Assembly: GCA_036397835.1 (NCBI GenBank)
Contig: DASWIG010000349.1
Coordinates: 962-64,961, forward strand
Length of the DNA: 64,000 bases
Source of the DNA: Thermoanaerobaculia bacterium
Lineage (GTDB): Bacteria; Acidobacteriota; Thermoanaerobaculia; Multivoradales; J023
Reading direction: 5' to 3'
The notes under the pieces are model-generated. The model made no database searches, was not told the DNA's origin, and saw nothing but the letters and a program-made list of their open reading frames with translations. Both the position numbers and the translations under genes were made by a program. Positions 3,462 to 61,159 of the stretch are shown piece after piece (position 1 is the first letter of the stretch; every line of letters begins with the position of its first letter).

Positions 3462-3514
3462 GGGGCCGCCCCCCGGCCCTGCTATCTTATGTGGAGATCC
3501 CGCCGGACAATGCC

Positions 3515-4933
3515 ATGAACGAGATCAGCTTCTTCAACTCCATGGGCCGCAAGCTCGAGCCCTTCACGCCCCTCGAGCCGGGCAGGGTGCGGCTCTACGC
3601 CTGCGGCCCCACCGTCTACGACCATCCCCACATCGGCAACCACCGCACCTTCCTCTTCGAGGACGTCCTGCGGCGGGGGCTCCTCTTCCTGGGCTACCAG
3701 GTCGAGCAGGTGATGAACGTCACCGATATCGACGACAAGACCATCCGCGGCGCCCAGGAGAAGGGCGTCACCCTCGACGAGTTCACGGCCCCCTTCGTCG
3801 CGTCGTTCTTCGCGGACCTCGACACCCTGCACGTCGAGCGGGCGGAGCACTATCCGCGGGCCACCGAGCACGTGCCGGAGATGATCGCCCTCGTCGAGCG
3901 GCTGCTCGAGCGCGGCTACGCCTACCCCAGCGACGGCTCGGTCTTCTTCCGCATCGCCGCCGACGATGACTACGGCCGCCTCTCGGGCGTCGACCTCGAC
4001 CACGTGCAGCGCGGCGAGCGGGTGGCCCAGGACGAGTACGAGAAGGAGGACGTGCGCGACTTCGCGCTCTGGAAGGCGGCCAAGAACGGCGAGCCGTCCT
4101 GGAGCTCGCCGTGGGGGCCGGGACGCCCGGGGTGGCACGTCGAGTGCTCGGCGATGAGCATGAGGTACCTCGGCGAGAGCTTCGACCTCCACTGCGGCGG
4201 CGTCGACAACATGTTCCCGCACCACGAGAACGAGATCGCCCAGAGCGAGTCGGCCACCGGCAAGCCGCTGGCCCACACCTGGCTGCACGCCGAGCACCTG
4301 CTCGTCGACGGCAGGAAGATGTCGAAGTCGCTGGGCAACCAGTACACGATCAAAGACCTGCTCGTCCGGGAGGCGGAGCCGCGGGCGATGCGCTACCTCT
4401 TCCTGTCGACGCACTACCGCCAGCGGCTCAACTTCACCTTCGACGCCCTGACGGCGGCCGGCGCGGCGCTGAGACGCAGCGACGAGATGCGCTTCCGGCT
4501 CGCCCACGCTACCGAGTCGGAGGAGAGAATCGCCGACGTCGAGGGCGCCGCTCGCCGCCTGCTCGACGGCTTCGCCGCGGCCCTCGCCGACGACCTCAAC
4601 GCGTCGGCGGCCCTCGGCGCCGTCTTCCAATTCGTCAAGGAAATCAACATGGCGGTCGAGGCCGGACGCATCGGCCGCGGCGACCGGCAGCGGGCGTTCG
4701 ACGCCCTGGCCCGCGTCGACCGGGTGCTCGGCGTGCTCGACCCGGCGGCGTGGCAGGAGCCGGCGGCGGCCGGCGGGCCCGGCGACGAGGAGATCGAGCG
4801 CAAGGTCCGCGAGCGCCAGGAAGCGCGGGGGCGGCGCGATTTCGCCGCCGCCGACCGGCTGCGCGACGAGCTGCAGGCGCTGGGCGTGGTGGTGGAGGAC
4901 ACGCCGCAGGGGCCGCGATGGCGCCGCGCCTAG
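3515..4933 (+). CDS. cysS: cysteine--tRNA ligase
   Basis: Class I aaRS HIGN and KMSKS motifs (CGPTVYDHPHIGNHRT, KMSKSLGN). ATG at 3515 (MNEISFFNS); the ORF-track start at 3458 is an upstream extension. Confidence 0.92.
   Translation: MNEISFFNSMGRKLEPFTPLEPGRVRLYACGPTVYDHPHIGNHRTFLFEDVLRRGLLFLGYQVEQVMNVTDIDDKTIRGAQEKGVTLDEFTAPFVASFFADLDTLHVERAEHYPRATEHVPEMIALVERLLERGYAYPSDGSVFFRIAADDDYGRLSGVDLDHVQRGERVAQDEYEKEDVRDFALWKAAKNGEPSWSSPWGPGRPGWHVECSAMSMRYLGESFDLHCGGVDNMFPHHENEIAQSESATGKPLAHTWLHAEHLLVDGRKMSKSLGNQYTIKDLLVREAEPRAMRYLFLSTHYRQRLNFTFDALTAAGAALRRSDEMRFRLAHATESEERIADVEGAARRLLDGFAAALADDLNASAALGAVFQFVKEINMAVEAGRIGRGDRQRAFDALARVDRVLGVLDPAAWQEPAAAGGPGDEEIERKVRERQEARGRRDFAAADRLRDELQALGVVVEDTPQGPRWRRA

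Positions 4934-18997: not shown

Positions 18998-19001
<4 letters not shown>
16563..19001 (-). CDS. FtsX/MacB-like ABC transporter permease (two FtsX domains). No fused or adjacent ATPase.
   Basis: About 812 aa from ATG 19001 (MTGSNLTQALRSLRRDWRVSSLVILIL...). That ATG overlaps the TGA of the upstream megasynthase (ATGA). N-terminal TM, large periplasmic domain, FtsX-type 4-TM bundles. Confidence 0.75.
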
Positions 19002-35809
<16,808 letters not shown>

Positions 35810-35833: not shown

Positions 35834-38800
35834 TCAGAAGTCGTCCAGGTCGTCGGTGAACACGGGGATCGGCTCGGATCCGGAGCCGATCGGCAGACGG
35901 AGCTCGCGGATCGGCTTGTGGGGATGGTCGACCAGCTCCTCGAGCAAAGCCAGGAAGTTGAACGCCAGCCGCTCGATGGTGGCGCCGTGGAACAGCTCCC
36001 GCCGATAGAGGACGACTCCTTCCAGGTGGTCTTCGTGCGCGCTGAACTGGAACGTCAGGTCCTCGATGGCAAGGTCCAGGGCGGGCACCGTGACCCGCAG
36101 CTCCTGGTCCTCGGCGAGGGCCTGAGGAGGGAGGGCGTCCTGAAGGACGAAGAGGGCCTGGTACAGAGGCGGGCCGCCCCGATCCGTCCGCAGCCGTTCG
36201 ACCAGCCGTTCGTAGGGGACGTCCTGGTGGGCCCAGGCCTCGAGCACGGTTTCCCGCGTCCGGGCCAGGAGCTCCACGCCGGTGGGATTCCCGGACAGGT
36301 CGACCTTCAAGACCAGGGTATTGAGGAAGCAACCGATCAGGTGATCGAGCTCCACGTGGTTGCGCCCCGCCACCGGCGCCGCCAGGGCGACCTCGCAGTG
36401 GCCGGCGAAGCGGGACAGCAAGACGTGCAGGACCGCCAGCAGCGACATGAAGAGCGTCGTCCCCTGCTCGCGTCCCAGCTTCCGCAGCCCCGTGGTCAAG
36501 CCCTTCGGCACCCCGACCGGAACCCGTCCTCCCCGGTGGCTCGGCCTGGCGCGGCGCCGGCGATCCGCAGGCAGCTCCGGCACGGTCGGCGGGTCTCCCA
36601 AGGCCGCTTGCCAGAAAGCGATCTGAGCCTCCAGGATCGGCCCCTGCTCCAAGTAGTGACGCTGCCAGCGAGCGTACTCGGCGAATCGGACGGGCAGTGG
36701 CGGGAGATTCGGCGAGGCGCCGGCGGCCAGCGCGCGATAGAACGCTCCCAGCTCGTGGCCCAGCAGCCCCAGAGACCAACCGTCGAGGATCAGGTGGTGG
36801 GCGGTGAGCAGCAGGACGTGGTGGCGGGGCTCCAGGCGCACCAGCACCAGACGCAACAACGGCGCCCGGGCGATGTCGAAGCGGTGCTGCGCCTCGCGGG
36901 CCAGCGCGCGCAGGGTCTCCCCTTGCCGAACGTCCCCGGGCAGGCCGGTGAGGTCCACCAGCGGCAGCTTCACCGGCCACGGTGCGACGATCTCCAGACC
37001 GGGCTGGCCGTCGACCTCCGGCAACGCGGCCCGCAGGACCTCCTGGCGCCGGCACAGCTCCTCAATGGCCCGGGCGAGGAGCGCTGGCTCGAGCCCGCCT
37101 GAGAACTGCACCAAGACCGGCAGGTTGAAGGCCGGATTGCCGGGATCGAGGCGATCGAGGAACCACATCCGCTGCTGGGCGAAGGAGACCTGCAGCGGCT
37201 CCCGGAGGGGTTCCGTGAGGGAGCTCGGTGCCGGCCAGGCGACCTCCTGCCGTCGCTGCGTTGACAAGGCCCGGGCCAGGGAGGCCACCGTCGGGCTCTC
37301 GAAGAGCTGTCGCAGGGAGACCTCCCGGTCCAGAGTCCGGCGCAAGCGGGCGACCACCCGGGCGGCGAGGAGGGATTGTCCTCCCAGCTCGAAGAAGTTG
37401 TCGTGGATCCCGAACCGGCTCGGATCGGTCTCCAGGATCTCGGCCCAGGACCCCGCGATGAGCTCTTCCAACGGGGTGCGGGACAAGATGGGAGGCGCCG
37501 CGCCGCTTTTCTCCGCGGTCTCGGGCGGCCGCAGGGAGCGGCGATCGACCTTGCCGTTGGCGGTCAGCGGGAGGGCCGCCAGGGGGATCCACTGCTCCGG
37601 GACCATGTAGGCCGGCAACTCTTCTTCCACGGCGCGGCGAAGCACGGCCACCGGCGCCTCCGGAGGCACGAAGAACGCCGCCAGACGCCGCTGTCCCCGG
37701 GGGTCCCCGAGGGCCGTGACCACCGCCGCGCGGACGGCCGGCTGGCGGTTGAGCACGGTCTCGATCTCGCCCAGCTCAATGCGATGGCCCCGGATCTTGA
37801 CCTGGAAGTCCTCACGGCCGAGAAACTCGATTTCGCCATCGGGCAGGTAGCGGCCCCAATCGCCGGTCCGGTAGAGGCGTTCGCCGGTAACCGGGTGGGG
37901 GACGAAGGCGGCGGCGGTGGCCGCCGGCTGCCGCCAATAGCCTCGGGCGAGGCCGCCGCCGCCGATGTGGAGCTCGCCGGGGACCCAGACCGGCCGCCGG
38001 CGCCGGCACGAATCCAGGACCTGGAGGCTCTGGTTCGTCATCGCCCGCCCGTAGGGGATGCTCGCCCAGCCGGGGTCGACCTCGACGATCGGGTAAAGGA
38101 CGGACCAGATCGAGGCCTCGGTGGCCCCCCCCAGGCTGACGACCGCAGCGTGCTCCGTCCGGGCCCGGAGGCGTACCGGCAGATCTGTCGGGATCCAATC
38201 GCCGGAGAGCAGAATCAGGCGCAGGCTGGCCGGCAAGGGGGTGGGGCGGACTTCCAGGGAGTCCATGAGCATCACCATCAGGGACGGGGTGGAGTTCCAC
38301 AGGCTGATGCCCTCCGCCGCCAGGAGGTGCAGCCAGTGCTCCGGGTCGCGACGCGCCTCCTCCGCCGGGAAGATCACCCGGCCGCCCGCAGCCCACAGGC
38401 CGAAGAGATCGTAGACCGACAGGTCGAAGCCCAGGGACGACAGGGCCAAGATCCGGTCCTCAGGCCCGACGTCAAAGCGGCGTTGGAGGTCGAGGATGGT
38501 ATTAACCGCTCCCCGGTGATCGATCATCACGCCCTTGGGATGGCCGGTGGAACCGGAGGTGAAGATGGTGTAAGCCAGGTGATCCGGGCAGCCCGGATCG
38601 GGCACGGTTGCGGCCGGGCCGCCGGGAGCTTCCACCGGCATGGCCACGACGCCGTCCGGCCAAGCCAGGGAGCTCGCCAGGTGGGCCTCGGTGAGGGCGA
38701 TTCCCACCTCGCCGTGGCACAGCAGATGGTGGCGCCGGGCCTCGGGCAGTTGGGGATCCACGGGCAGGTAGGCCGCGCCTGCCTTGAGCACCGCCAGCAC

Positions 38801-41800
38801 CGCCACCGCCTGGCGCCAGCCCTTTTCCAGCACTACGGCCACCAGCCGATTCGGGGCCGCGCCCCGCAGCCGCAGCCGATGGGCGAGGTTGTCGGAGCAC
38901 CGATCGAGCTCCCCATAGCTGAGGTGCCGGCCCGCCGCCACCGCCGCCACCGCCTCGGGACGGCGGGCGGCCTGGGCCCGGAACAGCCCGTGCAAGGTCT
39001 GGTCCGCGCTCGCGGCTGCGGGCTCGGGTTGCGGGCTCGCAGTCGCGGGCAAGAGAGACGGCACCGGCTCGTTCCAGGCCCGGGGATCCTCGGCCAGCCG
39101 GCGGAGCCAGCCGCAATACCCGGCGAAGAGCTGGTCGAGCAGACCGGGCGGAAAGGCGTCGTCGACGGCATCCCAGTTGAACGCCAAGCGGTCGTCTCGT
39201 TCCCCCACCTGATGATCCAGCAAGACCTGAGGGGTCTGGCTGATGCTGTAGACCGACTCCCTCTCGATGCCCAGACCGTCCCATCCTCCCCATTCCTCGG
39301 TGCTTTGGTCGATACCCAGGAGACTGGTGAAGACCACCGGCATGATCACCGGCCCGGTCCGCCGCTGGCGGGCGGCCAGCTCCCTCAGCACCTGGACGCC
39401 GCTGAAGTAGCGGTGGTCCAGGTCTCCCCAGAGCTGGCTTTGCAGCCGCCTGGCCTGGGTTTCGAAGGTCCCCGGATCCCCCATCTTCACCTCCAGCAGG
39501 AGCGTGGAGGTGAAATCCCCCACCAGCTCGTTGACCTGCGGATGCATGGGCAGGCGATTGAAGAGGGTCAGGTTGAGGACGAAGTGAGGCTGCCGGCTCC
39601 ATTGGGCCAAGCATTGGGCGAAAACGGCGAGCAGCAGACCGGCGGAGGTGATGCCCGAGCTCTTGCACCGCTCTTTCAATGAGCGCCACAGGTCCGGTCC
39701 GAGCTCGCCGCTCCGGCGGACGAAGCGGGGCCGGCGCAGCTCGGTAAGGGAGGTGACGAGCGGCAGCTCGGGAGCGGAGGGTAAAGCGTCCAGGCGCCGC
39801 AGCCAGTAATCCCGGGAGCGCCGGTAGAGCTCGCCCTCGCGCATGGCCTCCTCGGCCAGGACGTAATCTCGGAAAGACAGCTCCAGGGGCGCGACGGCGG
39901 CGTCGGGGTCGGCGTAGAAGCGGCACAGGTCGCGAAACAGCACCAGGAAGCTCAGCGCGTCCCCCAGCAGCAGGTCGAAGCTGAAGTGGAGCCGGCAACG
40001 GTCTTCCGCGAGCCGGCTGGCCCGCAGCTCGAAGAGCGGCCACTGCTCGCACGGACGGACCTGATGGGACATCTGACCCCGGATCTCCGACAGAGCCCCC
40101 TCCGTCGCCGCCGCTCCCAGGCCGCGCAAGTCCGCCGTCCGGACGTCGTAGGGCGGCACGTCGGGCAAGATCCGCTGGCGGCCGTTCGGGTCGATCACCG
40201 CCCGCAGCATGGGCTGATGCCCGATGAGCTTGCGGAAGGCGGAGGTCAGCCGTTCCAGGTCCAGATTCCGAAAGTCCATCTCCTCGTAGCTGTGGGTCGC
40301 CACCCCACCCAGCTCCATGCCCTCCGACCGGCCGATCCAATAGGCCTGCTGGACGTCCGTCAGGGGGAAGCTCTCCTGCCACCGCTCCGGATCCGGGGTG
40401 ATGGCGGGGAGCTGGGCGACCTCTCCGCCCTCTTGCCGTGCCTCGGACACCAGCTCGGCGAGAGCGGCGACGTGGGCGGACCGGAAGAAATCCTGCAGGC
40501 CGACGTCGACATGGCGGGTCCGGCGGACCTGGGCCATCATCTCCGTGGCCAGGAGAGAATCTCCGCCGAGCTCGAAGAAGTCGTCGTAGACCCCCACCGG
40601 CTCGACGCCCATGAGCCGTTGCCAGAGGCCCACGAGGATCTCCTCCTCGGGATTGCGGGGTGCGGCGTAGGGGGTTTCCAGCTCCGGGCGGCCGTGCTCC
40701 AGCGGTGTGTCCATCCGCTCCGCGGCGCCGGCGGTCGTCGTGGTTTTCGTGCCCTCCGGAAAGCCGGAAATCAGGCCGAACCCGGCGGGGGGATCGATCC
40801 AGAAACGCCGTCGCTGAAAGGGGTAGACCGGCAGGGGCAGGCGCCGGCGGCGCTCTTCGCCGTAGTAGCCGTCCCAGTCGATCTCTACTCCGGCCAGCCA
40901 CAGCCGGCCCAGGGTCGTGAGGAGGAAAGCGTCGTCCGCTTCGTTCCGGTCCGCGGGAGGCAGGGAGGCAAGCGCCACCCGCTCGCCGCCGTAGCCCGGG
41001 TGGCGCCGTGCCAGGCGGGTCAGGGCGTGTCCCGGCCCCACTTCCAGGAGCACCTGGCTCGGCTCGTTCCAGAGCTCGCCGAGGGCGTCGCCGAAGCGCA
41101 CCGGCCGGCGCAGGTGCTCGAGCCAGTAGGCCGGTTCGACGGCGGCTTCGGGCTTCAGCAGCGTGCCGGTGAGGTTGGAGAAAACCAACTCCTGCGGCGG
41201 TTTCAGGGTCACCCGCTCCAGCGCGGCGGCAAAGGGCTCGGACACCGGCTCCATCATCGCCGAGTGGAAGGCGTGGGAGGTATGGAGGAGGCGGCAGGTC
41301 AACCCCTCCTCCTCCAGGCGTTCCCGCCAGGCAGCCACCGCCTTCCGGGACCCCGAGACCACGCAGCGATCCGGACCGTTGACGGCCGCCAGGTCCAGGG
41401 AAGCGCCGAGGCGCTCCCGGACCTGCTCCGCCGGCAGCCGGACGGAGAGCATGGCGCCCTCCTCCAGGCCCTGCATCAGGCGTCCCCGCAAGGCCACCAG
41501 CTCCAGGGCGTCCTCCAAGGAAAAAACTCCCGCCAGGCACGCCGCCACGTATTCCCCGAGGCTGTGGCCTAGCATCGCCTGGGGGCGCACGCCCCAGGAA
41601 AGCCACAACCGGGCGAGGGCGTACTCGAAGGCGAAGAGCGCCGGCTGGACCTCGGCGGTCGCCTCCAGGGGCCGGGCGCCGTCGCCCCGGGACGGGAACA
41701 GGATGGTCAGCAGGTCCGGCTCCAGGTGGGGTTTCAAGATCTCCGCACAGCGGTCCAGCCAGTGGCGGAAGGTGGCTTCCTCCCGGTAGAGGTCCTGGCC

Positions 41801-43437
41801 CATACCGGCGTACTGGCTTCCCTGGCCCGGAAAGAGGAAGGCCACCGGCCGGTCGGTCTCGCGAAAGCAGCGTTGGAGCAACCGCCGGGGATCCCGGTCC
41901 CGGAGCAGGCGCACCGCTTCCCGGCCCTCGCCGGCGAGGAGGGCGCGACGGTGTTGACACGGCTTGCGTCCCACCTGCAGGGTGAAGGCCACGTCCGCCA
42001 GGTCCGACTCCGGATGCTGCTCCAGGTGATCGGCCAGACGGTCCGTGGCCTCCTCCAGAGCCGCGCCGTCGCGGGCTGAGAGCAGGAGCAGCCGCCACCG
42101 CCGGGCCGCCGGATCGCACGGCACGGCGGGCGGGGCCTCCTCCAGCACCGCGTGGGCGTTGGTGCCCCCGATCCCGAAAGAGCTGACCCCGGCGCGCCGC
42201 GGGGTTCCATTCGTATCCCAGTCCCGGAGCCGGACGTTGACGACGAACGGCGTGCGGCGGAAGTCGATCTTCGGATTGGGGGCCTGGAAGTGAAGGCTGG
42301 GGGGGATCTGGCCGTGCTCCAGCATGAGGACGGTCTTGATCAACCCGGCGATTCCGGCGGCGGTGTCCAGGTGACCGATGTTGCTCTTGACCGAGCCCAG
42401 GGCGCAGCGGCCGGGCCCGGCCGCCGGTCCGAAGGCCTGGCGCAGGGCCTCGACTTCGACCGGATCCCCCAGCGCCGTGCCGGTGCCATGGGCTTCGACG
42501 AAAGTGATGCTTTCGGGCGGCACCTCGGCGAGCTCCAGGGCCGCCCGGATCACCCTTCGCTGTCCCTCGATGCTGGGGGCGGTATAACCCACCTTGTGCC
42601 GGCCGTCGTTGTTGATCGCCGTGCCCCGAATCACGGCGTGGATGGTGTCACCGGCCGCCACGGCGTCTTCCAGCCTCTTGAGGGCCACCACCCCCACCCC
42701 ATCTCCCGCCAGGGTGCCCCGGGCCTGGGCGTCGAAAGGCCGGCAGTGACCGTCTGGGGAATGGATCCCTCCCTCTACGTAGCGATAACCCCGCTGGCCG
42801 AGCAACCTCACCGTCACGGCTCCGGCCAGGGCCAGGTCGCTCTCGCCCGCCTGCAAACCCTGGCACGCCAGGTGGACCGCCACCAGCGAGGTGGAGCACG
42901 CGGTCTGTACCGTGACGCTGGGACCGGTCAGGTTGAGCTTGTAGGACGTACGGGTGGCCAGGTGATCCTTTTCGTTGGCCAGGAGCAGTGCGTGCATCCC
43001 CAGGTCCGCCACCAGGCAGGGATGCGCGCTGAGCTGCATGACATAGGTGTTGGTGGAGGCTCCGGCGTAGACCCCGATGGGGCCGGCGAAGCGTTCGGGG
43101 TCGACGCCCGCGTGCTCCAGGGCACTCCAGGCCGTTTCCAGGAAGAGGCGGTGCTGAGGATCGAGGATCTCGGCTTCCCGCGCCGTGAAACCGAAAAAGT
43201 CGGCGTCGAAGAACTCGACGCCGGCCAGGTAGCCGGTCGCCGGGACGTAGCTCGGATCGGCGAGGACCTCGCGGGGCACGTCCGCGAGCAGCTCGTCGAT
43301 GGAAAAACGGCGGATGGATTCCACCCCGGCGCAGAGATTGTGCCAGAAAGCATCGACGTCGTCAGCGCCCGGAAACCGCGCCGCCATCCCGACGACCGCC
43401 ACTTCCAGGCCACTTGCCTGTTTTCCCGGGTCCTTGC

Positions 43438-43441
<4 letters not shown>
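35834..43441 (-). CDS. Hybrid PKS-NRPS, 2535 aa. Domain order KS-AT-ACP-Cy-A-T-C.
   Basis: KS (TACSTS near 42890-42910; HGTGT; NIGH). AT GHSLGE...HAFHS (malonyl-type motif). ACP GGDSL. Heterocyclisation domain with FPLTDVQQAYWIGR (about 40327-40370) and DxxxxDxxS (FDLLLGDALS, about 39948-39980). A domain with DLY..W-type residues at Stachelhaus positions 235/236/239/331, compatible with Cys; A10 NGKVDR. PCP GGQSL. C-terminal C (HHLILDGWS). Start ATG overlaps the upstream stop (ATGA). Confidence 0.88.
39030..40370 (-). other. Heterocyclisation (Cy) domain (approximate)
   Basis: N-terminal Cy signature FPLTDVQQAYWIGR and the DxxxxD motif replacing HHxxxDG. Both were located in the DNA by reverse-complement matching. 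Confidence 0.7.
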
Positions 43442-49502
<6,061 letters not shown>

Positions 49503-49506
<4 letters not shown>

Positions 49507-51593
49507 CGAGCGTCCTCCGGCAAGACCACGTCTTGCTGGCGCACCGAGGCCTGCCGTTCCAGGAAGCTCTCGATCTCCCCCGGTTCGATGCGAAAACCGC
49601 GAATTTTGACTTGCTGATCGATCCGGCCCAGGAACTCGATCTCTCCATCTGCCGCCAATCGGGCCAGATCGCCGGTCCGGTAGAGGCGCTGGTCCGGCAC
49701 CTCTGCAAAGGGGTCGGGGATGAATCTGCTGGCGGTCTGTCGCGGACGTCCCAGGTAGCCACGGCCCACCTGGATTCCTCCGATGTGGAGATGGCCCGCC
49801 ACTCCTATGGGTAGAGCGTGGTCGAGAAGGTGAATGCGGGTATTGAACACCGGCCGCCCGATAGGGACGCTCATCTCGCCGCCGTCCGGAGCACAGGTAT
49901 GGGAGGTGACGTCGATGGCGGCCTCGGTGGGACCGTAGAGATTGTGGAGCTCGGTCTTGAGATGCCCAAATCGTTTGCAGAAAAGACGCTCGTGCTCCGG
50001 CGTCAGGGCCTCGCCGCTGGCGATGATCCGCCGCAGGTTGGTGATGTCGGAAAGGCCCGGCTCCCGGAGAAAGACCCCCAGCATCGACGGCACGAGGTGC
50101 AGGACCGTCACCCGCCGTTCCACGATGAGGGACGCCAGGTAGGCGCTGATCCGGTGTCCCTCCGGTCGGGCCATCACCAGCCGCGCCCCCACGAGAAGAG
50201 GCCAGAAGAGCTCCCACACCGAGACGTCGAAGCTGATCGAAGTCTTTTGCAGCACACGGTCGGCCGGGGTGAGAGGATATGTTTTCTGCATCCAGAAGAG
50301 TCGATTGCAGATCGCCCGATGAGAGTTCATGGTTCCCTTCGGGCGCCCCGTGGAGCCGGAGGTATAAATCATGTAGGCGAGCTGCTCCAGGGCCACAACG
50401 TCTCTCGCGTGTTGTCTGCCTCTGCGGGCGTGTGCCCTCGTCGTCCCACGGAGTACGAGTCTTCCGGTAACCGGATCGCCTTCGACCACCACGGCGGCGC
50501 CGGAATCCCTGAGCATGAAGGCCAATCGTTCCTGGGGATAGGATGGATCGAGAGGTACGTAGGCGCCGCCGGCCTGGAGAATCGCCAAAAGCCCCACCAG
50601 AAGCTCGGGCGACCGCTCCAACGAGATCGCGACCCGTATCTCCGGTCCCACCCCGAGGTCGCGCAATCGCCCTGCCAGGTGGCCCGCCCGAGCTTGGAGC
50701 TCCCCGTAGGTGACAAACTGCTCTCCGATCTCCAGTGCCACCGCGTCCGGAGTCCGTGCGGCCTGTGATTCGAAGAGCTCCGTCAAGCTCTGCGGGCCGG
50801 CAACAGGCACGTCCGTGTCGTTCCATTCCAGCGCCAGTTGATGTTTCTCTGCCGTGCTGATCAGGGAGAGCTCCCCCACTCGCCGTTGCGGATGAGCGCA
50901 AAGCTCCTCCAGCAGACCGGCGAAATGGACCTGCAGGCGGCGCAGCGTCACCCGGTCCCAAAGCTCCGTGCAGTATTCGAAAGCCCCATCCAAGGTGTCC
51001 CCCGACTCGGCCAGGGAAACCTTGAGATCGACGGGCACGGCGCTTGTTTCCGTTTCCAGAAAACGTATCACAAGATCCGGCAGATTGACGTCCTGGAAGG
51101 GAGCGTTGCCCCAGGCGAACGTCACCTGGAAGAGCGGCGAGCGCGATGGGTCCCTCTCCGGCTGCAGGGCGTCCACCAACTTCTCGAAAGGCAGATCCTG
51201 ATAGGCATGAGCCCCAAGGACTCGCTGATTGACCTGAGCGAGCAAGTCCAGGAAGCTCGGATCACGCTTCAGATTTCCGCGGAAAACCAGGTGGTTGACG
51301 AAAGGACCGATCAGGTCCTCGGTCTCCGCGTGAGGTCGATCGACGGGGGGCCTGCCTTTCCGGGCGAACGTCTTGCGAAGAACCTCGTGCCGTTGGACGA
51401 TTTTCCGGAAGCTCATCGCCAGCGCCGCACCGTCCGGGGCTCCGTCGAAACGCAGCACGAAGGGGGTGCTGTAGGCGGCGGTGCTTTGACCCGCCAGCGC
51501 GTCGAGAAACCAAAAGCGCTCCTGAGCCCAGGACAGGGGCAGCTCCCGGTCACGGCGGGCGGCGGCCGCCGAACCGCCGAACAGCTCGCTCAT
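49503..51593 (-). pseudogene. Degenerate C-A remnant gene (696 aa). C domain lacks the HHxxxDG core through an about-190-aa internal deletion. A domain is truncated after the A8 core (no A9/A10, no T). Near-duplicate of the C-A region of the downstream gene.
   Basis: About 90-93% nt identity between 49520-51560 and 44000-46650, compared by eye (for example 49941-50400 vs 44421-44880). Copy lacks the segment equivalent to about 45830-46400. ORF ends ...FLERQASVRQQDVVLPEDAR* whereas the intact copy continues ...VRQAVVTVRSYGTDDRRLVAYV.... ATGA-coupled to the upstream gene and GTGA-coupled to the downstream gene. Confidence 0.6.
49520..51560 (-). repeat. Direct repeat copy B (degenerate C-A coding segment)
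   Basis: Paralogous to 44000..46650 with an internal about-570-nt deletion and 3' truncation. Confidence 0.7.
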
Positions 51594-54500
51594 CGCACGT
51601 CCTCCGACAAGACGACGGGCCGCCGCCGTTGCCGGGCCTGCCGTTGGGCGGTCGCACGCTCCTGCATGCCGTCGAGCTCCGCCTGCTCGGCCTCGGCCTC
51701 GGTCTCGGCCTCGGCGAGGTAGCGTGCCAGGGAGCCGATCGTCGGGTAGGTGAAGAGGTCGACCTGCAACAGGTCGTCCCGGCCGAGCTTTTTTGCCAGT
51801 TCCTCGTGGGCCTGGACCAGCGCCAGGGAATGGCCGCCATGATCGAAGAAGTTGTCGTCAACGCCGAGTTTGTCGACCCGCAGCACGTCCTTCCAGACCT
51901 CGGCGATGGTGCGCTCCAGGCGGTTGCGCGGCGCCACGTACTCGCCCGAGACATCCGAGCGCCGGCTCTCCGGCCGGGGCAGGGCGCGCAGGTCGAGCGC
52001 GCCGCCGGCGGTGCGCGGCAGAAGACCCACCGGCAGCACCGCCTCCGGGCACAGGAAAGGCGGCAGCCGCTGGCGCAGGAATCCCGTGAGCTGGGCGGGT
52101 GAGACCGCGTCGGCGCACACCACGTAGGCCACCAGGCGCTTGTGCCCCGGATCGTCCTCGCGCACGGCGACCTCGACGTCGTCAACCTGCGGATGCGAGC
52201 GCAAGACCGCTTCCACCTCGCCCGGGTCGACGCGGTGCCCTTTGACCAACACCTGCCGGTCGCGGCGGCCGAGCGGCTCCAGGATGCCGTCGTGGCGGTA
52301 GCGGGCCAGGTCGCCGGTGCGGTGCAGCCGGCCGCCCGGCCGGCTGCCGAAGGGATCGGGAGCGAAGCTCGCGGCGGTCTCGCGAGCGTCTCCCATCACG
52401 GCGCGGGCCAGCCCCTCGCCGCCGAGGAGGAGCTCGCCGGTGGCGCCCACCGGGACCGGCTTCAGGGCGTCGTCGAGCAGGTAGACCTGGCGGCCGGCAA
52501 GCGGCCGCACCGTGGCGGTACCGTCGCGGCGGCGCGTCTCGACGCGCGAAAAGGCCGTCGCCTCGGTGCGCCCGTAGACGATGCAGACACGCTCGAGGGT
52601 GGAGCTCGCGAAGAGCTTCCCGAGCAGGGCTTCGGACGGCCGGTCATAGGCGAAGCTCACCGTCCGCAGCGCCGGCGGGAGCGCCTCCAGCCGGAGCAGC
52701 TCGGCCATGGCCGAAGGCGTGGCCGTCACCAACCGGACGTCCGCCGCGGCGGCCAGCCGCGAGGGGCGCAGGACGTCGCCGGCCAGCAGCACCCGGCCGC
52801 CGCGGGCGAGCGGCGCGAACAGCTCGAAGATCGAGACGTCGAGGCTGACCGGCGTCGACGCCAGGCAGCCGCCGAGATCCTCGTCGTCGAAGAGCTCCTG
52901 GGCCGCGGCGAGCCAGGTGGCGAGGGCCCGGTGCGGGATCTCGATCCCCCGGCGCCCGCTCGGTCCGGAAGTGTACAGGACCCAGGCCAACTGCTCGCCC
53001 CGCGGCGGCGGCAGCGGCGCCGCCGGCTCGAAGGGCTCGCGGTCGGCGCGCACGACCCGGCAGCCGGACAGCGTCGGCAGTTGCTCGTGGAGCGGCGCCT
53101 CGCTCACCAGCCAGCGGGCGCCGCTGGCGTCGAGGGCTTCGAGCGGCCGCTCGGTGCTCTCGCCCAGGTCGACCGGCACGCAGGCACCGCCCGCCTTGAG
53201 CACCGCCAGCATGGCGACCACGAGGCGCGGAGTCCGCTCGAGGAAGATCCCCACCCGGTCCTCGGCGGCCAGGCCCAGGCGGCGGAGATGGCCGGCCAGA
53301 CGCGACGAGCGTTCGTCGAGGTCGCCGTAGGTCAGGCTCTCGCCCTCCCACCGCACCGCTTCGCGTCCGGGATGGCGGCGCGCCGCCGCGGCGATCACCT
53401 CCGGCACCGTCCGCGCGGCCGGCGCCGCGACCGCGACGCCGCTCCATTCGCCCACCGACTGCCAGCGCTGCGCCGGGGAGAGCGGCTCGAGATCCCCCAA
53501 CCGGGCGTCCGGCTGGCGGGCCATGGCGTCGAGCAGGCGGCCGAGGTGCTCCAGCCGCTGCCGGACGGCGCAGTCGCTGAAGCGCCCGGTGTCGTAGATC
53601 ATCTTGAGCCGCAGCCCGGGCTTCTCGTAGGCGTGGACCAATAGCGGATAGCCGGGCTGGCGGCGGATCTGCACCGTCATGCTCCGGTATCGCGGGCCCA
53701 GCCAGGGCAGCGACGCGCTCAACGGGTAGCGCTCGAATTGCACCAGACTGTCGAAGAGCGGTTGGCCGGAGGCGATGTCGCTCCACTCCTGGACCTTGGA
53801 GAGCGCCGTGTGCTCGTGGGGGCGCAGTGCCGTCCAGAAGCTGCGCAGCTCTTCCAGGTAGACGCTCAAGGGCTTGCTCGGCTCGGCTATGGCCCGCACG
53901 GCGAGGGTGTTGACCATCGGACCGACGATCGTGTCGCCGCCGGGGAGCGACGCGCGGCACGACTTGACGGCCCCGAAGGCGACGTCGTGACGCCCGCTGT
54001 AGCGCGCCAGCAGCAAGCCCCAGGCGGCCTGGGTCACCGTGTTGAGGCTCAGGCCCTCGCGCTGGCACCTGGCGGCGAGGGCGGCGCCGGTCTCCGGTGA
54101 CAGGAGGAGGTCCATTTCCCGGTGGCCGCGGCTCGGGTCCGCGGCCGAGCTCTCGAGGCCGTCCGCGGCAGGAGTCGGGCTTTCGAAGCCGGCGAAGGCG
54201 GCGCGCCAGAAGGCCTCGTCTCGCGACGCGTCCTGAGCCGCGACGTGCTCGACGTAGTCGCGGAACGGCAGCGACTGCCGGGGCTCGAAGGCGCTGCCCG
54301 CGGCGATCGCCGCGTAGCGGCCGAAGAGGTCGGTGGTGGCGATCGGCACGGAGCGCCCGTCGACCACCGCGTGATGGACGGTGATCAGGATCCGAGACCC
54401 GGACGCGCCGCCGTGGAAGAGCGCCGCGCGGATCAGCGGCGGCCTGCCGAGCACGAAGCCGCGGCGCCGGTCCTCGCGCAGATATCCCTCCAGGCGGATC

Positions 54501-54799
54501 TCCTGCTCCTCGGTGGGCAGCTCGCTCCAATCCTGCGCGGTGAACGGCACCTGCACCGCCGGGGCCACCCACTGCCGGGCCTCGGCGCCGTGCCAGTCAA
54601 AGGCCGTGCGCAGCGCCGGGTGACGCTGGACCATCCAGTCCAGGCAGTCCCGCAGCAGAGGAGCGTCGACTGCCTCGGGAAGGGCGAAGACGAGCTGCCA
54701 GACGTCGACGCCGGAGCCCGGGCGGTTCAGGCTCTGAACGAGCATTCCCTCCTGGATCGGGGACAGCGGATAGCTCTCTTGCGTCATTCGCAACCTCAC
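51590..54799 (-). CDS. NRPS initiation module Cs-A-T (about 1065 aa). N-terminal starter-type condensation domain. A domain with non-canonical core motifs, no A10 lysine. PCP and C-terminal docking-like tail.
   Basis: C: HHAVVDGRS. A: A2 LKAGGACVPVD; A3 YTSGPSGRRGIEI (vs YTSGSTGxPKG); A8 GRRDRQVLVKGHRV; A10 region LPRTAGGALDLRAL (vs NGKVDR in all other A domains of the cluster). PCP: FFDHGGHSLAL. Likely true start ATG at 54787 (MTQESYPLSPIQEGM), 12 nt after the TAA of the upstream gene; the ORF-track start is GTG at 54799. Confidence 0.85.
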   Translation of the reverse strand: MRLRMTQESYPLSPIQEGMLVQSLNRPGSGVDVWQLVFALPEAVDAPLLRDCLDWMVQRHPALRTAFDWHGAEARQWVAPAVQVPFTAQDWSELPTEEQEIRLEGYLREDRRRGFVLGRPPLIRAALFHGGASGSRILITVHHAVVDGRSVPIATTDLFGRYAAIAAGSAFEPRQSLPFRDYVEHVAAQDASRDEAFWRAAFAGFESPTPAADGLESSAADPSRGHREMDLLLSPETGAALAARCQREGLSLNTVTQAAWGLLLARYSGRHDVAFGAVKSCRASLPGGDTIVGPMVNTLAVRAIAEPSKPLSVYLEELRSFWTALRPHEHTALSKVQEWSDIASGQPLFDSLVQFERYPLSASLPWLGPRYRSMTVQIRRQPGYPLLVHAYEKPGLRLKMIYDTGRFSDCAVRQRLEHLGRLLDAMARQPDARLGDLEPLSPAQRWQSVGEWSGVAVAAPAARTVPEVIAAAARRHPGREAVRWEGESLTYGDLDERSSRLAGHLRRLGLAAEDRVGIFLERTPRLVVAMLAVLKAGGACVPVDLGESTERPLEALDASGARWLVSEAPLHEQLPTLSGCRVVRADREPFEPAAPLPPPRGEQLAWVLYTSGPSGRRGIEIPHRALATWLAAAQELFDDEDLGGCLASTPVSLDVSIFELFAPLARGGRVLLAGDVLRPSRLAAAADVRLVTATPSAMAELLRLEALPPALRTVSFAYDRPSEALLGKLFASSTLERVCIVYGRTEATAFSRVETRRRDGTATVRPLAGRQVYLLDDALKPVPVGATGELLLGGEGLARAVMGDARETAASFAPDPFGSRPGGRLHRTGDLARYRHDGILEPLGRRDRQVLVKGHRVDPGEVEAVLRSHPQVDDVEVAVREDDPGHKRLVAYVVCADAVSPAQLTGFLRQRLPPFLCPEAVLPVGLLPRTAGGALDLRALPRPESRRSDVSGEYVAPRNRLERTIAEVWKDVLRVDKLGVDDNFFDHGGHSLALVQAHEELAKKLGRDDLLQVDLFTYPTIGSLARYLAEAETEAEAEQAELDGMQERATAQRQARQRRRPVVLSEDVR

Positions 54800-57370
54800 T
54801 TACGCGGGTGGGTCGGGTGGCGGCGCCTCGGCGGCCGTCAGGTCGACGGCGACGATCCTCAGCTCGCTCGTGTAGGTCTGGCCTTCGGCGTCCGGCAACC
54901 AGGTCTGGTCGGGAGCCGGCAGCATCTCGCTGGCGGAGACCCGCGCCGCCTCGCCGTGCGCTTCGCGGGCGCGGCGGATCTCCTTGGCGAAGATGGCGAC
55001 GTAGAGCGGATTGTCGAAGTCGACGAACATGGGCTTGATCTCGCTCGACGTGCGGGTGAACACGAAGCGCGGCATCCCGTGGCCCGCGGCCCAGCGCCGG
55101 ACTTTGACGAAGAGCTCGAAGGCGTCTTTCTCGTCGGCGAAGGTCAGCTCTGCGCCGGCGAAGCGCCAGGTCTCGCGGGCCATGACCAGGCGGTCGACGG
55201 TGACCCGCGGGGTATGGTCCCAGGCCGGCAGGAGGCGGGTTTCGAGGGCGAGCAGGAGCGAGAGGATCAGCGCGAAGCACTCGACGGGCTCGACCTCCAG
55301 GCGGCCATCGTGGGTGCGCACCCTCAGGCGGCCGTCGCGTCGCTCGAGCTGCAGCTCGGAGAGCTTCAGGACCCGCGCTCCCTCGAGGCCCGCGGCGTCG
55401 GCCGAGGTGACGAGCAGGTAGTCCCGAGGGCTCACCAGGCTCATGTTCGTCCGCGTGGTGGCGCGCGGCACGTTCTTCGGAGTCACCGACAGCACGCGGG
55501 GGACGGTGACGTCGCGCGCCACCGCCCGCACGAGCTCCTCGGGGCGGGGGTGCTGCTCGACGAAGACCGAGGAGTTGAGGGTGTTGGTGGCGACGTGGAG
55601 CTCGCCCATCACGATCTGGAAGTCGCCGCCGGCCAGCGCTTCGACGCTGGGCGAGGAGATCATGAGGTCAGGACTGTGGTGGCAGGCACCCGGCCAGCCG
55701 ATGCCTGAAGTGCGGAAGGCGGCGCGGACCCGGGGGCCCAGCTTCTCGCTCGAGAGCTGCACGCGCCGGCTGCCGGGCCGGATGCCGAGGAGCTCGGCCC
55801 AGAGCTGCTGATAGCTCTCGAGCACCCGGTCGAGGGGTCGGCCGCGGGCGCCGAAGATCAGGTGCTGGGCCTGGAACCAGAAATCGACCATCTCGACCGT
55901 CGACGAGGCGGACCTTTCGGCCAGCTCGAGATGGACCTCCTCGAAAGCCCGCCGGTATTCCTCGGCCACCCGGCAGCTCAGCCAGCGGCTGCTGTCGAGG
56001 ACCAGCTCCAGGGGGGGCGCCAGGGTGGCGAGCAGCTTCTTGCCGAGCCGGACGTCGACGTGGCGCCGGCAATCCTCGTAGACGAGGGTGCGGGCGGCGT
56101 AGGTCCGGCCGGCGGCACGCGTCGGCTCCTGGCCGGTCAGGCGGGTGAAACACTCCTCGAGGCTCTCGAAGGACTCGTCGAGGCGTTGTGGATCGCCGGC
56201 CGCTTCGCCGACCCTGCGCCGGGCGGCATCGAGCTCGTCGAGGTCGGCCAGGGCGCCGTCGCGCAGCTCGAGGTCCAGAATCGCCTCGAGCTGGGCCCTC
56301 AGGGTCCGCTCGGGATGGGCCTCGAGGGGAATCTCGAGGCCCCATGAGAGCACGCCTTCGTCCCGCAGGCGGTCGAAGAGGTCGAGCACCTCCTGCGGAT
56401 CCTCGACGTCGCTCGCGGGGTCCGCCGCCAATTGCTCGGCGATCGTCCGGGCGGGACGGCGGCCGTCGCAGGCGGCCAGCGCCGCCGCTTCCGTCGCGCT
56501 CAGCGGCCGCGGCGACTCGAACGGCCGGCGCACGCTCGTGGCGCCGAGCTTAACGAACGGCAGGATCCGCGGCGGAAGCCAACTGCGCAGCGCCGGATCC
56601 GCCGTCATCCGCTCGGCGAGCGCGTCCACGGTCCAGCCTTCGAAACAGACCTTGCGATCGCAGAGCATCTCGGGGTGGACGCGGACCCGGACCACCTCGT
56701 CCTCCTCGCTCCACCAGGCCCAGCCGACAGGACCGAAGAAGCCGATCGTGTCGTTCTTGGCGCCGTAGCGTTGGAGATAACGCGCCACGAGCTCCTCGCG
56801 GCGGCGATAGGCGGAGCTGCCGAAGTCCTCGCGGCCGGAGGCCAGCAAACGCTCGACGCCGGTGTGGAAGCCGCGCCGGTTCTGCCACAGGACGGCTTCC
56901 TGGAAGCGCGCAGTGGCGGCGATCCGGCGCAGGCTTTGGGTGACCGCGGATCCGGCGCGCTCGAAGGCCTCTCGGAGCTCGCGCAGCGCCGAGTCCCGCT
57001 GCTCCAGCGCCCGCTGATAGGCCTCGACGGCCGAACGGGTGGCGGCGTTGAGCGGCGCGAGGTCTTCGTGGCAGGGGCTCGCGGCCTCGAGACGCCGGCG
57101 CACCCGGCGCAGGGCTCGGCGCTCGGCGTCCGAGCTGCGCCGGATGTCGCCGCGCAGGGCGATGGAGGCCTGGTTGCGGAGCCATTCCAACTCCTCCTCG
57201 CAGAGCAACAAGCGCTGCGCCGCCGCGCCGCAGTCGCCGACCTCGGGGCCGGTCACGGCGGCGACGGGAAATCCCGCGGCGCGCAATGCCGTGCATCGCC
57301 AAAAGGCCCACCGCCCCGCTCCGGGCAGAGACACCAAGTGCCCAACGTCCCCCAAGGCCCAGTCCTCCAC
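54800..57370 (-). CDS. LanB-like protein (lanthipeptide dehydratase N-terminal glutamylation-domain family; PEARL-like standalone architecture without SpaB_C elimination domain), 856 aa
   Basis: Motif ARYLQRYGAKNDTIGFFGPVGWAWW resembles the conserved LanB/Lant_dehydr_N signature (RY..R...TPFGLF[AS]G). The about-850-aa size matches split-LanB/PEARL proteins. No C-terminal eliminase domain, and no small precursor ORF nearby. Immediately followed, co-directionally, by the NRPS genes. Confidence 0.55.
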   Translation of the reverse strand: MEDWALGDVGHLVSLPGAGRWAFWRCTALRAAGFPVAAVTGPEVGDCGAAAQRLLLCEEELEWLRNQASIALRGDIRRSSDAERRALRRVRRRLEAASPCHEDLAPLNAATRSAVEAYQRALEQRDSALRELREAFERAGSAVTQSLRRIAATARFQEAVLWQNRRGFHTGVERLLASGREDFGSSAYRRREELVARYLQRYGAKNDTIGFFGPVGWAWWSEEDEVVRVRVHPEMLCDRKVCFEGWTVDALAERMTADPALRSWLPPRILPFVKLGATSVRRPFESPRPLSATEAAALAACDGRRPARTIAEQLAADPASDVEDPQEVLDLFDRLRDEGVLSWGLEIPLEAHPERTLRAQLEAILDLELRDGALADLDELDAARRRVGEAAGDPQRLDESFESLEECFTRLTGQEPTRAAGRTYAARTLVYEDCRRHVDVRLGKKLLATLAPPLELVLDSSRWLSCRVAEEYRRAFEEVHLELAERSASSTVEMVDFWFQAQHLIFGARGRPLDRVLESYQQLWAELLGIRPGSRRVQLSSEKLGPRVRAAFRTSGIGWPGACHHSPDLMISSPSVEALAGGDFQIVMGELHVATNTLNSSVFVEQHPRPEELVRAVARDVTVPRVLSVTPKNVPRATTRTNMSLVSPRDYLLVTSADAAGLEGARVLKLSELQLERRDGRLRVRTHDGRLEVEPVECFALILSLLLALETRLLPAWDHTPRVTVDRLVMARETWRFAGAELTFADEKDAFELFVKVRRWAAGHGMPRFVFTRTSSEIKPMFVDFDNPLYVAIFAKEIRRAREAHGEAARVSASEMLPAPDQTWLPDAEGQTYTSELRIVAVDLTAAEAPPPDPPA

Positions 57371-59278: not shown

Positions 59279-61159
59279 TCACATCTCCTCGAGCGCCTCG
59301 ATGGCCAGCAGCCGCAGGCCGTTGCCGACGACGACGCGGAAGGCCGCCAGCAACGCCAGGCGGCTCGAGCGCACCGGCTCGCCCGATTGCAGCACCGGGT
59401 GGTCGTGGTAGAAGGTATTGACGAGCTGCGCCAGCTCGATCAGGTAGCTCGACAGACGCATCGGGTCGTAGCTCTCGGCCGCGTCAGCCACGACCACGGG
59501 GAAGAGCATCACCTGGACGAGGATGCGCCACTCGACGTCCTCGCCGAGGACGAGGGTCTCGGGCGGCTGCCAGTCGCCCGCCTTGCGCAGGATGCTCGAG
59601 ACGCGGGCATAGGCGTACTGCAAGTAGGGGCCGGTCTTGCCCTCGAAGGCGAGCGACGAGGCGGGGTCGAAGTGGATCTCCGTGTCCTTGCCCACGGCGA
59701 GGAAGTGGAACGTCATGGCGGCGAGACCGATCGCCATGGCGCGGCGGTCGAGCTCCTCTCCCTCGAGGTCCGGGAAGCGCTCGCGGATGGCCTCGCGGGC
59801 GAGCTGCCTCATGCCGTCCATCAGGTCGTCGGCGTCCACCACCCGGCCCTCGCGCGACTTCATCTTGCCCTCGGGCAGGTACACCATGCCGTAGCTCAGG
59901 TGATAGAGGCCGTCGGCCCATGGGAACCCCAGGAGCTTCAGGATGGCGAAGAGCTGCTGCATGTAATAGTCCTGCTCGGAGCCGATGCAATACAGGGACC
60001 TGGTGAGCCCGAACTCCTTGAATTTGATCGCGGCGAGATGGATGTCCTGAGTGACGTAGAGGCCGGTGCCGTCGCCGCGCAGCACCGCCTTGTCCTGGAG
60101 CTTGCCGTGCTCGGAGAGCGGCGCGATCACCGCGCCGTTCGGCGCCCGCTTGAAGATCCCTTTCTCCACCGCCGCGAAGATGATCTCCTTGCCGCCTTCG
60201 TAGATCTCGCTTTCGTAATAGTGCTTGTCGAAGTCGAGACCGAGGCGGTCGTAGGTTTCTTTGAAGCCGGCGTAGACCCAGCCGTTCATCCTCTCCCACA
60301 GCGCGCGGGCCTCGGCGTCGCCCGCTTCCCACCGCTTCAGCAGGTCGCGCGCCGCGGCGAGCAGACGCGACGACTCGTTGAAGCGTTCGTCGAGATCCTT
60401 CGCTTCTTTGTCGAGCTCCTGCTCGGCGCGCCACGTTTCTTTTTCTTTCTGCAGCTCCTGCTCGAAGCGCACGTAGAGACGGCCGACGAAGCGGTCGCCT
60501 TTGACTCCGGCGCTCTCGGGCGTCGCGCCTTCGCCCCAGCGCTCGTAGGCGAGCATCGACTTGGCAATGTGGATGCCGCGGTCGTTGACGATCGACGTCT
60601 TCAAGACCCGGGCGCCCTGGGAGGCGAGGAGGTTGGCGACGGCGCGGCCGAGCACGCCGTTGCGCAGGTGGCCGAGGTGGAGCGGCTTGTTGGTGTTGGG
60701 CGAGACGTACTCCATCATCACCACCTCGCCGGCCTCGCGGTCGGAATCGCCGTAGGCGTCGCCCGCTTCGCGGGCCTCGGCGACCGCGCGCGGCACGACC
60801 GCGTCGCGGTCGAGCTCGACGTTCAGGTAGGGGCCGGCGGCGACGGCGCGGGCGATCCAGGCGTCGGGCGGGATCGCCGCCGCCATCTCTTTGGCGATCT
60901 CGGCGGGGTTCTTCTTCCACTGGCGCGCCAGCTCGAAGCAGCGGAACGACAGGTCGCTGCCGGTGTGGGACGGCGCCGGGGTGAGGGCCACGTCCTCCAC
61001 GGCCACGGCGCCGCGCGAGGCGCCGGCGATCGCCGCGGCAACGTGGCCGTACACGTCGGCGAGCGTGCGGCCGACGACGAAGTCATGGGTCAGGGCTTTC
61101 ATGGCGGCAGGTTCCTTCCAGGAGCTGCGCAATATACCAGGTACGACGTCTCGTGACAT
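59279..61159 (-). CDS. argS: arginine--tRNA ligase
   Basis: Class I HIGH-like (PNTNKPLHLGHLRN) and C-terminal DALR anticodon-binding region. Start may be the internal ATG at 61102 (MKALTHDFV...). Confidence 0.85.
   Translation of the reverse strand: MSRDVVPGILRSSWKEPAAMKALTHDFVVGRTLADVYGHVAAAIAGASRGAVAVEDVALTPAPSHTGSDLSFRCFELARQWKKNPAEIAKEMAAAIPPDAWIARAVAAGPYLNVELDRDAVVPRAVAEAREAGDAYGDSDREAGEVVMMEYVSPNTNKPLHLGHLRNGVLGRAVANLLASQGARVLKTSIVNDRGIHIAKSMLAYERWGEGATPESAGVKGDRFVGRLYVRFEQELQKEKETWRAEQELDKEAKDLDERFNESSRLLAAARDLLKRWEAGDAEARALWERMNGWVYAGFKETYDRLGLDFDKHYYESEIYEGGKEIIFAAVEKGIFKRAPNGAVIAPLSEHGKLQDKAVLRGDGTGLYVTQDIHLAAIKFKEFGLTRSLYCIGSEQDYYMQQLFAILKLLGFPWADGLYHLSYGMVYLPEGKMKSREGRVVDADDLMDGMRQLAREAIRERFPDLEGEELDRRAMAIGLAAMTFHFLAVGKDTEIHFDPASSLAFEGKTGPYLQYAYARVSSILRKAGDWQPPETLVLGEDVEWRILVQVMLFPVVVADAAESYDPMRLSSYLIELAQLVNTFYHDHPVLQSGEPVRSSRLALLAAFRVVVGNGLRLLAIEALEEM

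Follow-up and report, generated by a model that had tools for sequence, protein, structure and literature searches.

A probable scar of partial module duplication, half of it still constrained, inside a hybrid NRPS-PKS operon of the Thermoanaerobaculia

Degenerate domains that persist in line within assembly lines are familiar from NRPS and PKS systems, among them the truncated A* domain of the kutzneride enzyme KtzH, inactive A domains that are loaded in trans, and the AT remnants of trans-AT PKSs. The X domain of glycopeptide NRPSs is a degenerate C-type domain that is reused as a recruitment platform; it has a complete two-lobed fold and is conserved across clusters. Natural recombination units of NRPSs have been described by Baunach et al. 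(2021; PMC8097286); in these events homologous exchange replaces the A core of a module that goes on working. From fungal genomes, relic or truncated modules of NRPSs are reported as well (for example PMC6367777, PMC4517408). Among the papers listed by literature searches, none, judged by title or abstract, describes a bacterial free-standing relic comparable to the one presented below.

We analyzed a 64,000-nucleotide stretch of DNA (the window, in whose numbering all coordinates are given) and focus on a 696-aa open reading frame, here called the remnant, that lies within a hybrid NRPS-PKS operon (Table 1). Its translation is stop-free, and an identical protein is on record as HEX9733569.1, from a metagenome-assembled genome of the Thermoanaerobaculia (Acidobacteriota). 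Like the in-line domains, the remnant can still be recognised as NRPS/PKS sequence despite the loss of catalytic parts, is in frame and would be translated, and the X domain provides a precedent for the idea that such a protein could act as a non-catalytic scaffold. With the units of PMC8097286 it shares a break at the boundary between A core and A_sub and an A core as the moving unit, and the low GC common to both C-A copies hints at an import before the duplication; with the fungal relics (PMC6367777, PMC4517408) it shares an origin as a leftover of NRPS gene rearrangement within a cluster.

Table 1. Features of the remnant and of its operon (window coordinates).
Feature	Coordinates	Strand	Remarks
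Remnant ORF, 696 aa	49503..51593	-	broken C domain, A core (A1-A8) and 11-residue tail; ATG start
C-domain N-terminal fragment (C1/C2 motifs)	51356..51568	-	82% nt identical to 46428-46637; pLDDT <50 at residues 1-42 and 68-103
Deletion junction, net 591 nt, in frame	51349..51356	-	C core including HHxxxDG gone; intact copy 45831-46427
C-domain C-terminal fragment and C-A linker	50835..51350	-	Pfam Condensation 280-455
Adenylation core A1-A8	49536..50834	-	core motifs all intact; pLDDT ~90
Remnant tail QDVVLPEDAR*	49503..49535	-	copy of the 3' end of the upstream C-A-T gene, PVVLSEDVR*
J1, native junction	51586..51616	-	C-A-T gene tail, GGAGGA and ATG AGCGA; now starts the remnant
J2, duplicated junction	49499..49529	-	tail, GGAGGA and GTG AGCGA; now starts the KS gene
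Intact paralogous C-A segment	44005..46637	-	inside the KS-AT°-T-C-A-T gene 43438-49506
Downstream gene, 2022 aa, KS-AT(degenerate)-T-C-A-T	43438..49506	-	
Upstream gene, 1069 aa, C-A-T	51590..54799	-	donor of the duplicated tail
LanB-like gene	54800-57370	-	same operon
2535-aa KS-AT-T-C-A-T-C gene	35834-43441	-	same operon
5603-aa A-T-C-A-T-C-A-T-KS-AT-KR-T-C-A-T-TE gene	18998-35809	-	same operon

The first-pass annotation, made from the sequence letters, had described the remnant as a direct repeat of the C-A segment of the downstream gene at about 90% nucleotide identity. BLASTN aligned nucleotides 245-2058 of the remnant to 45830-44005 at 87.7% identity (~1.8 kb, E = 0) and nucleotides 26-238 to 46637-46428 at 82.2% (~0.2 kb); the repeat is thus real and the figure slightly high. 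Since E = 0, the match between the copies is no chance pattern. At the protein level, the remnant and the intact C-A segment are 81% identical.

Pfam splits the Condensation domain of the remnant into two pieces (profile positions ~4-70 and 280-455), the best being aa 85-253 (280-455), and matches AMP-binding (PF00501) at aa 274-614 over profile positions 1-384 with 281 bits. No Pfam match was found in the remnant to AMP-binding_C (PF13193) or to a PP-binding carrier (T) domain (PF00550, with its GGxS). In the intact copy the stretch missing from the remnant measures 597 nt; with 6 unaligned nt subtracted, the net loss is 591 nt or 197 codons, against the roughly 570 nt first estimated. The NIHHIVSDGWS of the intact copy falls in this 197-codon gap, to which the greater part of the N lobe, HHIVSDG included, and the beginning of the C lobe have been lost, and the remnant does not have the complete two-lobed fold of a C domain. 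Because HHxxxDG is absent and both lobes are broken, condensation by the remnant would be excluded. At its other end the remnant stops 15 codons past the A8 motif, and A9 and the A10 catalytic lysine are absent; the intact copy continues past A8 with LPPYMVP (A9), SGKVD (A10) and then a T domain. Alignment and Pfam thus bear out the early reading that the copy has lost HHxxxDG and ends after A8 without A9, A10 or T; that description was correct except for its rounded figures. In the ANL superfamily, the A10 lysine and the rotation of A_sub are required for both half-reactions. As it has no A_sub, A10 lysine or T domain, the remnant is almost certainly incapable of adenylation or of carrier loading.

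What is left of the A domain is well preserved. All family-invariant A-core residues (A1-A8) are kept, and its motifs include YTSGSTGRPKG, FDVSVWE, NLYGPTE, YRTGDL and GRIDQQVKIRGFRIEPGEIE. At the nine core specificity positions, taken from an A4/A5-anchored alignment with GrsA numbering, both copies read DVWHISLID. This is one residue off the published serine code, DVWHLSLIDK, and we infer from the code that both A domains would be serine-type. AlphaFold2, run on a 41-sequence alignment, assigned the A core a pLDDT of ~90 over residues ~270-660 and predicted the N-terminal C fragment to be disordered. Peptides specific to the remnant include ones spanning FARKGRPPVDRPH or SVRQQDVVLPEDAR.

The genes of the operon lie on the minus strand, and 4-nt start/stop overlaps are the rule among them. 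Those of the remnant are cgATGAgc at 51593 and cgGTGAgc at 49506, exactly as first claimed, and GGAGG sits 7 nt before each of the two starts (the ATG of the remnant and the GTG of the KS gene). We found that J2 (GTGGTCTTGCCGGAGGACGCTCGGTGAGCGA, 49529-49499) and J1 (GTCGTCTTGTCGGAGGACGTGCGATGAGCGA, 51616-51586) are identical at 26 of 31 nt. Within the 31-mer lie GGAGGA as ribosome-binding site, the start codon and the next gene's first two codons (Ser-Glu); the first three residues are M-S-E in the remnant and V-S-E in the product of the KS gene, and the remnant enters the T-C linker of the intact copy after ~25 nt. In a three-way alignment, the remnant follows the intact A domain up to ...GAACGGCAGGCCTCGGTGCGCCAG (…ERQASVRQ) and then the 3' tail of the upstream C-A-T gene, and just before this switch point all three sequences have an 11-nt microhomology, AACGGCAGGCC, in common. 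The final 33 nt of the remnant are not derived from the A domain, and only eight tail residues resemble the C terminus of the upstream protein. What is newly recognised here is that these last 33 nt, together with the KS gene's start and Shine-Dalgarno site, appear to be a copy of the junction that precedes the remnant. Direct repeats (44005-46637 and 49536-51568) are thus found together with a novel junction, J2, that duplicates J1, a pattern that shows the remnant as the apparent scar of a partial tandem duplication or a template switch. The module-duplication fossil that had been offered as one of several interpretations is strongly supported and is now resolved to its junctions.

We propose that the ancestral operon would have had a C-A-T gene followed by a KS-AT-T-C-A-T gene, with a 4-nt overlap and a GGAGG site between them. 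An illegitimate event would then have copied the segment from ~33 nt before the KS start codon to just past A8, either as a partial tandem duplication followed by deletions or as a single multi-jump template switch. The upstream copy would have lost KS-AT-T and the core of the C domain, leaving 'MSE', the T-C linker, C(1-70), the C-terminal 175 aa of C, the A core and the 11-residue tail, and the remnant and the KS gene would each hold a copy of the same ribosome-binding site and start. The coupling signals at both ends of the remnant appear, on this evidence, to be inherited from one native junction, not evolved. Because both overlaps, with their GGAGG sites, are copies of a single pre-existing junction, they are uninformative on later selection; we caution that start/stop overlaps and open frames may be inherited and not selected. 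The earlier argument that the overlaps mark the remnant as something other than a dead fragment is therefore weakened, and its conclusion holds on other grounds, in that in-frame indels and an A-core omega of ~0.2 (see below) are not those of an ordinary pseudogene.

The lower GC of the repeat copies, pointed out in the first-pass annotation, was also recovered: the remnant has a GC of 0.637 and the intact C-A segment 0.641, against 0.715 in the flanking KS-AT-T, 0.731 in the upstream C-A-T gene and 0.70-0.71 in the two downstream genes. The C-A copies (44005-46637 and 49536-51568) are thus 6-9 GC points under the rest of the cluster, and an in-between value, 0.686, is seen in the A_sub-T behind the intact copy. 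As both copies are low in GC and A_sub-T is intermediate, this suggests that the C-A(core) unit came in from a donor of lower GC and was duplicated afterwards. A donor closer than ~54% amino acid identity was not found among the matches listed.

Several other domains of the cluster deviate from their consensus. The A domain of the upstream C-A-T gene (51590-54799, minus strand) has the motifs YTSGPSGRRG (A3), YGRTEAT (A5), HRTGDL (A7) and GGALD (A10, Lys to Ala) and looks defective, and the population variants of this gene comprise three nonsynonymous and no synonymous changes. One contig (L021) carries a 10-nt deletion at the equivalent of 51940-51949 that would shift the frame just before the T domain, and which may be either a real disrupted allele or an assembly error. 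In the 2022-aa gene, the AT (46900-47900, minus strand) reads GHGLG for GHSxG, with the active-site Ser replaced by Gly; ~65 residues including the HAFH region are missing relative to the AT of the next gene, and Pfam matches only positions 2-124 of 319. The KS of the same gene keeps its Cys/His/His. Since its AT is degenerate, the module of this gene would be either loaded in trans or inactive. The LanB-like protein that opens the operon (54800-57370, minus strand) consists of the N-terminal domain alone, which is of the tRNA-dependent glutamylation type, and lacks an elimination domain; a gene for arginyl-tRNA synthetase (59279-61159, minus strand) lies two genes away from it, and a cysteinyl-tRNA synthetase gene is found at 3458-4933 (plus strand). 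From these genes, the NRPS-PKS pathway may include tRNA-dependent chemistry.

The same gene order and junctions were found in at least eight contigs or assemblies, namely the window, L001-L006 and L021. These come from several JGI samples and two ENA assemblies with at least two record-naming styles (JGI Ga..., ENA k141...), all of them short-read metagenomes. The contigs are 99.5-99.99% identical to the window with differing SNPs, and a 9-nt indel among them makes the protein either 696 or 699 aa long. The frame of the remnant is open over its 696 or 699 codons in all full-length copies recovered (haplotypes n = 6, matching window/L001/L002, L003, L004, L005, L006), with no frameshift and no premature stop. 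A further search of JGI metagenomes returned only one more contig, from the same population. In a 5.8-billion-protein collection, in which the 8000 candidates sharing most words were scored, the matches listed consisted of a 99% cluster and then of proteins at 54% identity or less. The 81%-identical 2022-aa neighbour was absent from the remnant's matches despite being in the collection, which shows that a word-based search of this kind can miss proteins of such length. No orthologous cluster showing the pre-duplication state was found, the best matches in the genomes of GTDB species being at most 35% identical.

To compare selection on the two copies, we computed dN/dS by the Nei-Gojobori method, as the first-pass annotation had proposed, and obtained a mosaic. 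Over the whole remnant against the intact copy, dS was 0.28 and dN/dS 0.31; by region, dN/dS fell from 0.48 in the C parts to 0.23 for the A core as a whole and to 0.14-0.17 between A3 and A8, with dS at ~0.27-0.34. We then polarised the amino acid differences, using Nei-Gojobori counts, with 50 outgroup modules that are only ~50% identical. In the C fragments the remnant was deviant at 43 sites and the intact copy at 12, and in the C-terminal C fragment (50835..51350) the remnant had decayed at 30 sites against 7. In the A core, change was symmetric, with 19 sites in the remnant and 22 in the intact copy. Under an assumed even split of synonymous change, omega is ~0.75 for the remnant C fragments, 0.21 for the intact C domain, 0.22 for the remnant A core and 0.24 for the intact A core. 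A neutral A core would give ~83% remnant-derived changes, whereas 46% were observed, and neutrality is rejected (p = 1e-7); the C fragments are compatible with it (p = 0.37). All indels on the remnant lineage are in frame (+3, STAAYS; a segregating -9, GWV; and the net -591), as are the loss of KS-AT-T and the 3' junction. Taken together, the frame of the remnant appears to have been kept open while its C fragments are seemingly junk, decaying near-neutrally, and the A core appears to be under purifying selection with a constraint equal to that of the working copy. These results give no support to the earlier idea of a docking or scaffold role between the first T domain and the KS, as the C fragments, the carrier-facing part, decay neutrally and are predicted to be disordered.

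We considered other sources of the low dN. Recent gene conversion keeping the A cores alike was rejected: at 41 nt, the longest stretch of identity does not exceed the 44 nt expected, variants in the population are for the most part not shared with the paralogue, and conversion is no explanation for the low dN because there are no unusually long identical tracts. A hidden overlapping gene was likewise rejected, as neither the KS-frame extension at 49507-50961 nor either of two antisense ORFs had a Pfam match. Among the consensus contigs, the remnant carries 11 SNPs and one indel in 2.1 kb, a density five-fold higher than the ~1 per kb of the flanks (p = 2e-5). We discounted this as a sign of relaxation, because the variants lie in one haplotype block that also spans the KS domain. 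In that KS domain (48343-48618, minus strand), 20 SNPs fall within 276 nt (in L003, L004 and L006) against a background of ~1 SNP per kb, and may mark a recombination tract. Conversion from the KS of the next gene was tried as its source and set aside, since only 4 of the 20 alleles match; the source is probably another strain or another KS.

We favor, with a probability of about 0.6, the reading that the remnant is a translated duplication scar that is biosynthetically inert and whose frame is held open by the cost of polarity and lost coupling downstream. As GGAGG lies 7 nt before its ATG and its stop overlaps the start of the KS gene, the remnant should yield a free 76-kDa protein and be translated about as strongly as its neighbours. 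A stop or frameshift would leave at most ~2 kb untranslated ahead of ~30 kb of megasynthase genes, so that the long mRNA of the operon would become prone to polarity and the start of the KS gene would lose its coupling. Polarity would thus be the reason for the open frame; the KS gene is perhaps independent of coupling, since it has a GGAGG site of its own. A promoter and terminator scan found nothing relevant between the genes. The loss of KS-AT-T and of the C core would have disarmed a duplicate that was able to capture intermediates but not to pass them on. Under this inert reading, the constraint on the A core might reflect a harmless stable fold in a protein that is obligatorily made, or a residual binding role. 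It does not comfortably explain that constraint: an A-core omega of ~0.22 is stronger than what "merely harmless" predicts and fits a function at the protein level.

Such a function is the basis of a possible, if less likely, alternative, in which the remnant is a functional free-standing A core that binds serine and ATP without an A_sub and serves the assembly line in trans, whether by binding substrate, by regulation or as a structural partner, its C fragments being decaying N-terminal baggage. The omega of ~0.22, equal to that of the intact paralogue with symmetric change, the retention of the invariant A1-A8 residues and of the nine core specificity positions, the confidently predicted fold and the in-frame ORF with its strong ribosome-binding site all agree with this, and a helper is conceivable given that the A domain of the upstream module looks defective (A10 Lys to Ala). 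However, the A10 lysine and A_sub are missing and no orphan A_sub-T is encoded within the window, no free-standing homologue outside this population was found among the matches listed, and a 9-nt deletion inside the core segregates in the population along with three amino acid variants. We regard as rather doubtful the related notion of a half-recycled relic, in which selection would maintain the A core, without its mobile subdomain, because it binds serine and ATP for the assembly line or supports it structurally. Such a core might relate to the upstream module that has no A10 lysine, and would amount to a natural "split" or non-catalytic employment of an A core.

It is improbable that the remnant is a plain, neutrally drifting pseudogene whose open frame and low dN reflect luck or a period before truncation, as would be the case if long-diverged serine modules or alleles had existed and one had been truncated recently. 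In simulations of neutral decay, 10% of runs remained stop-free at 112 substitutions and 1.6% at 224, so that the chance of escaping stops (0.10) is not tiny, GC-rich DNA leaves many frames open, and the elevated SNP and indel density noted above would fit relaxed constraint. The divergence of J1 and J2 bounds the age of the junction only loosely, and part of the A-core divergence could therefore predate truncation. Against this, the 5 of 31 nt at which J1 and J2 differ imply an old truncating junction, the C fragments, unlike the A core, have been decaying over roughly the entire time since the copies diverged, and the four or five independent in-frame events would have a probability of ~0.01 or less under neutrality; the extra SNPs, in a block that also covers the KS domain, give no clean sign of relaxation. 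Finally, an assembly artefact, in which the repeat of one module was mis-joined or collapsed, as the first-pass annotation had also suggested, is very unlikely and is rejected: the region does contain a 2-kb repeat and the assemblies are all short-read metagenomes, but 12% of positions differ between the copies, too many for a collapse, the junctions carry diverged sequence of their own, and the identical layout recurs across samples and pipelines with distinct SNP and indel haplotypes.

The favored reading, a translated scar, makes this locus a base-resolved snapshot of the rearrangement of a hybrid NRPS-PKS operon, in which an illegitimate junction at the hinge between A core and A_sub would have duplicated a gene start together with its ribosome-binding site. 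It also offers an internal control within one ORF, where apparent junk C fragments lie beside a constrained A core. Should the A core be constrained because it has a function, this would suggest that A cores can have a non-catalytic or trans role that has gone unrecognised, and would bear on engineering at the A core / A_sub boundary; if there is no function, the remnant would be a textbook duplication scar.

In comparison with the systems described at the outset, the remnant differs from degenerate in-line domains in that it is a separate gene, is constrained over only half its length, and has an origin that a duplicated gene junction makes traceable at single-base resolution. Unlike the X domain, it is without ~200 residues spanning both lobes, and the rest of its C domain is neutral and predicted to be largely disordered. 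In contrast to the homologous exchange of PMC8097286, the remnant derives from an illegitimate junction, at the level of microhomology, to a gene tail, and a non-working extra copy was made. The fungal relics (PMC6367777, PMC4517408) differ from the remnant, which is bacterial, lies within an operon, is in frame, has an intact ribosome-binding site and contains a constrained A core. Overall, degenerate in-frame domains are already familiar and the hinge between A core and A_sub is a known recombination boundary (PMC8097286); this remnant, well resolved as it is, stands out by its constrained A core.
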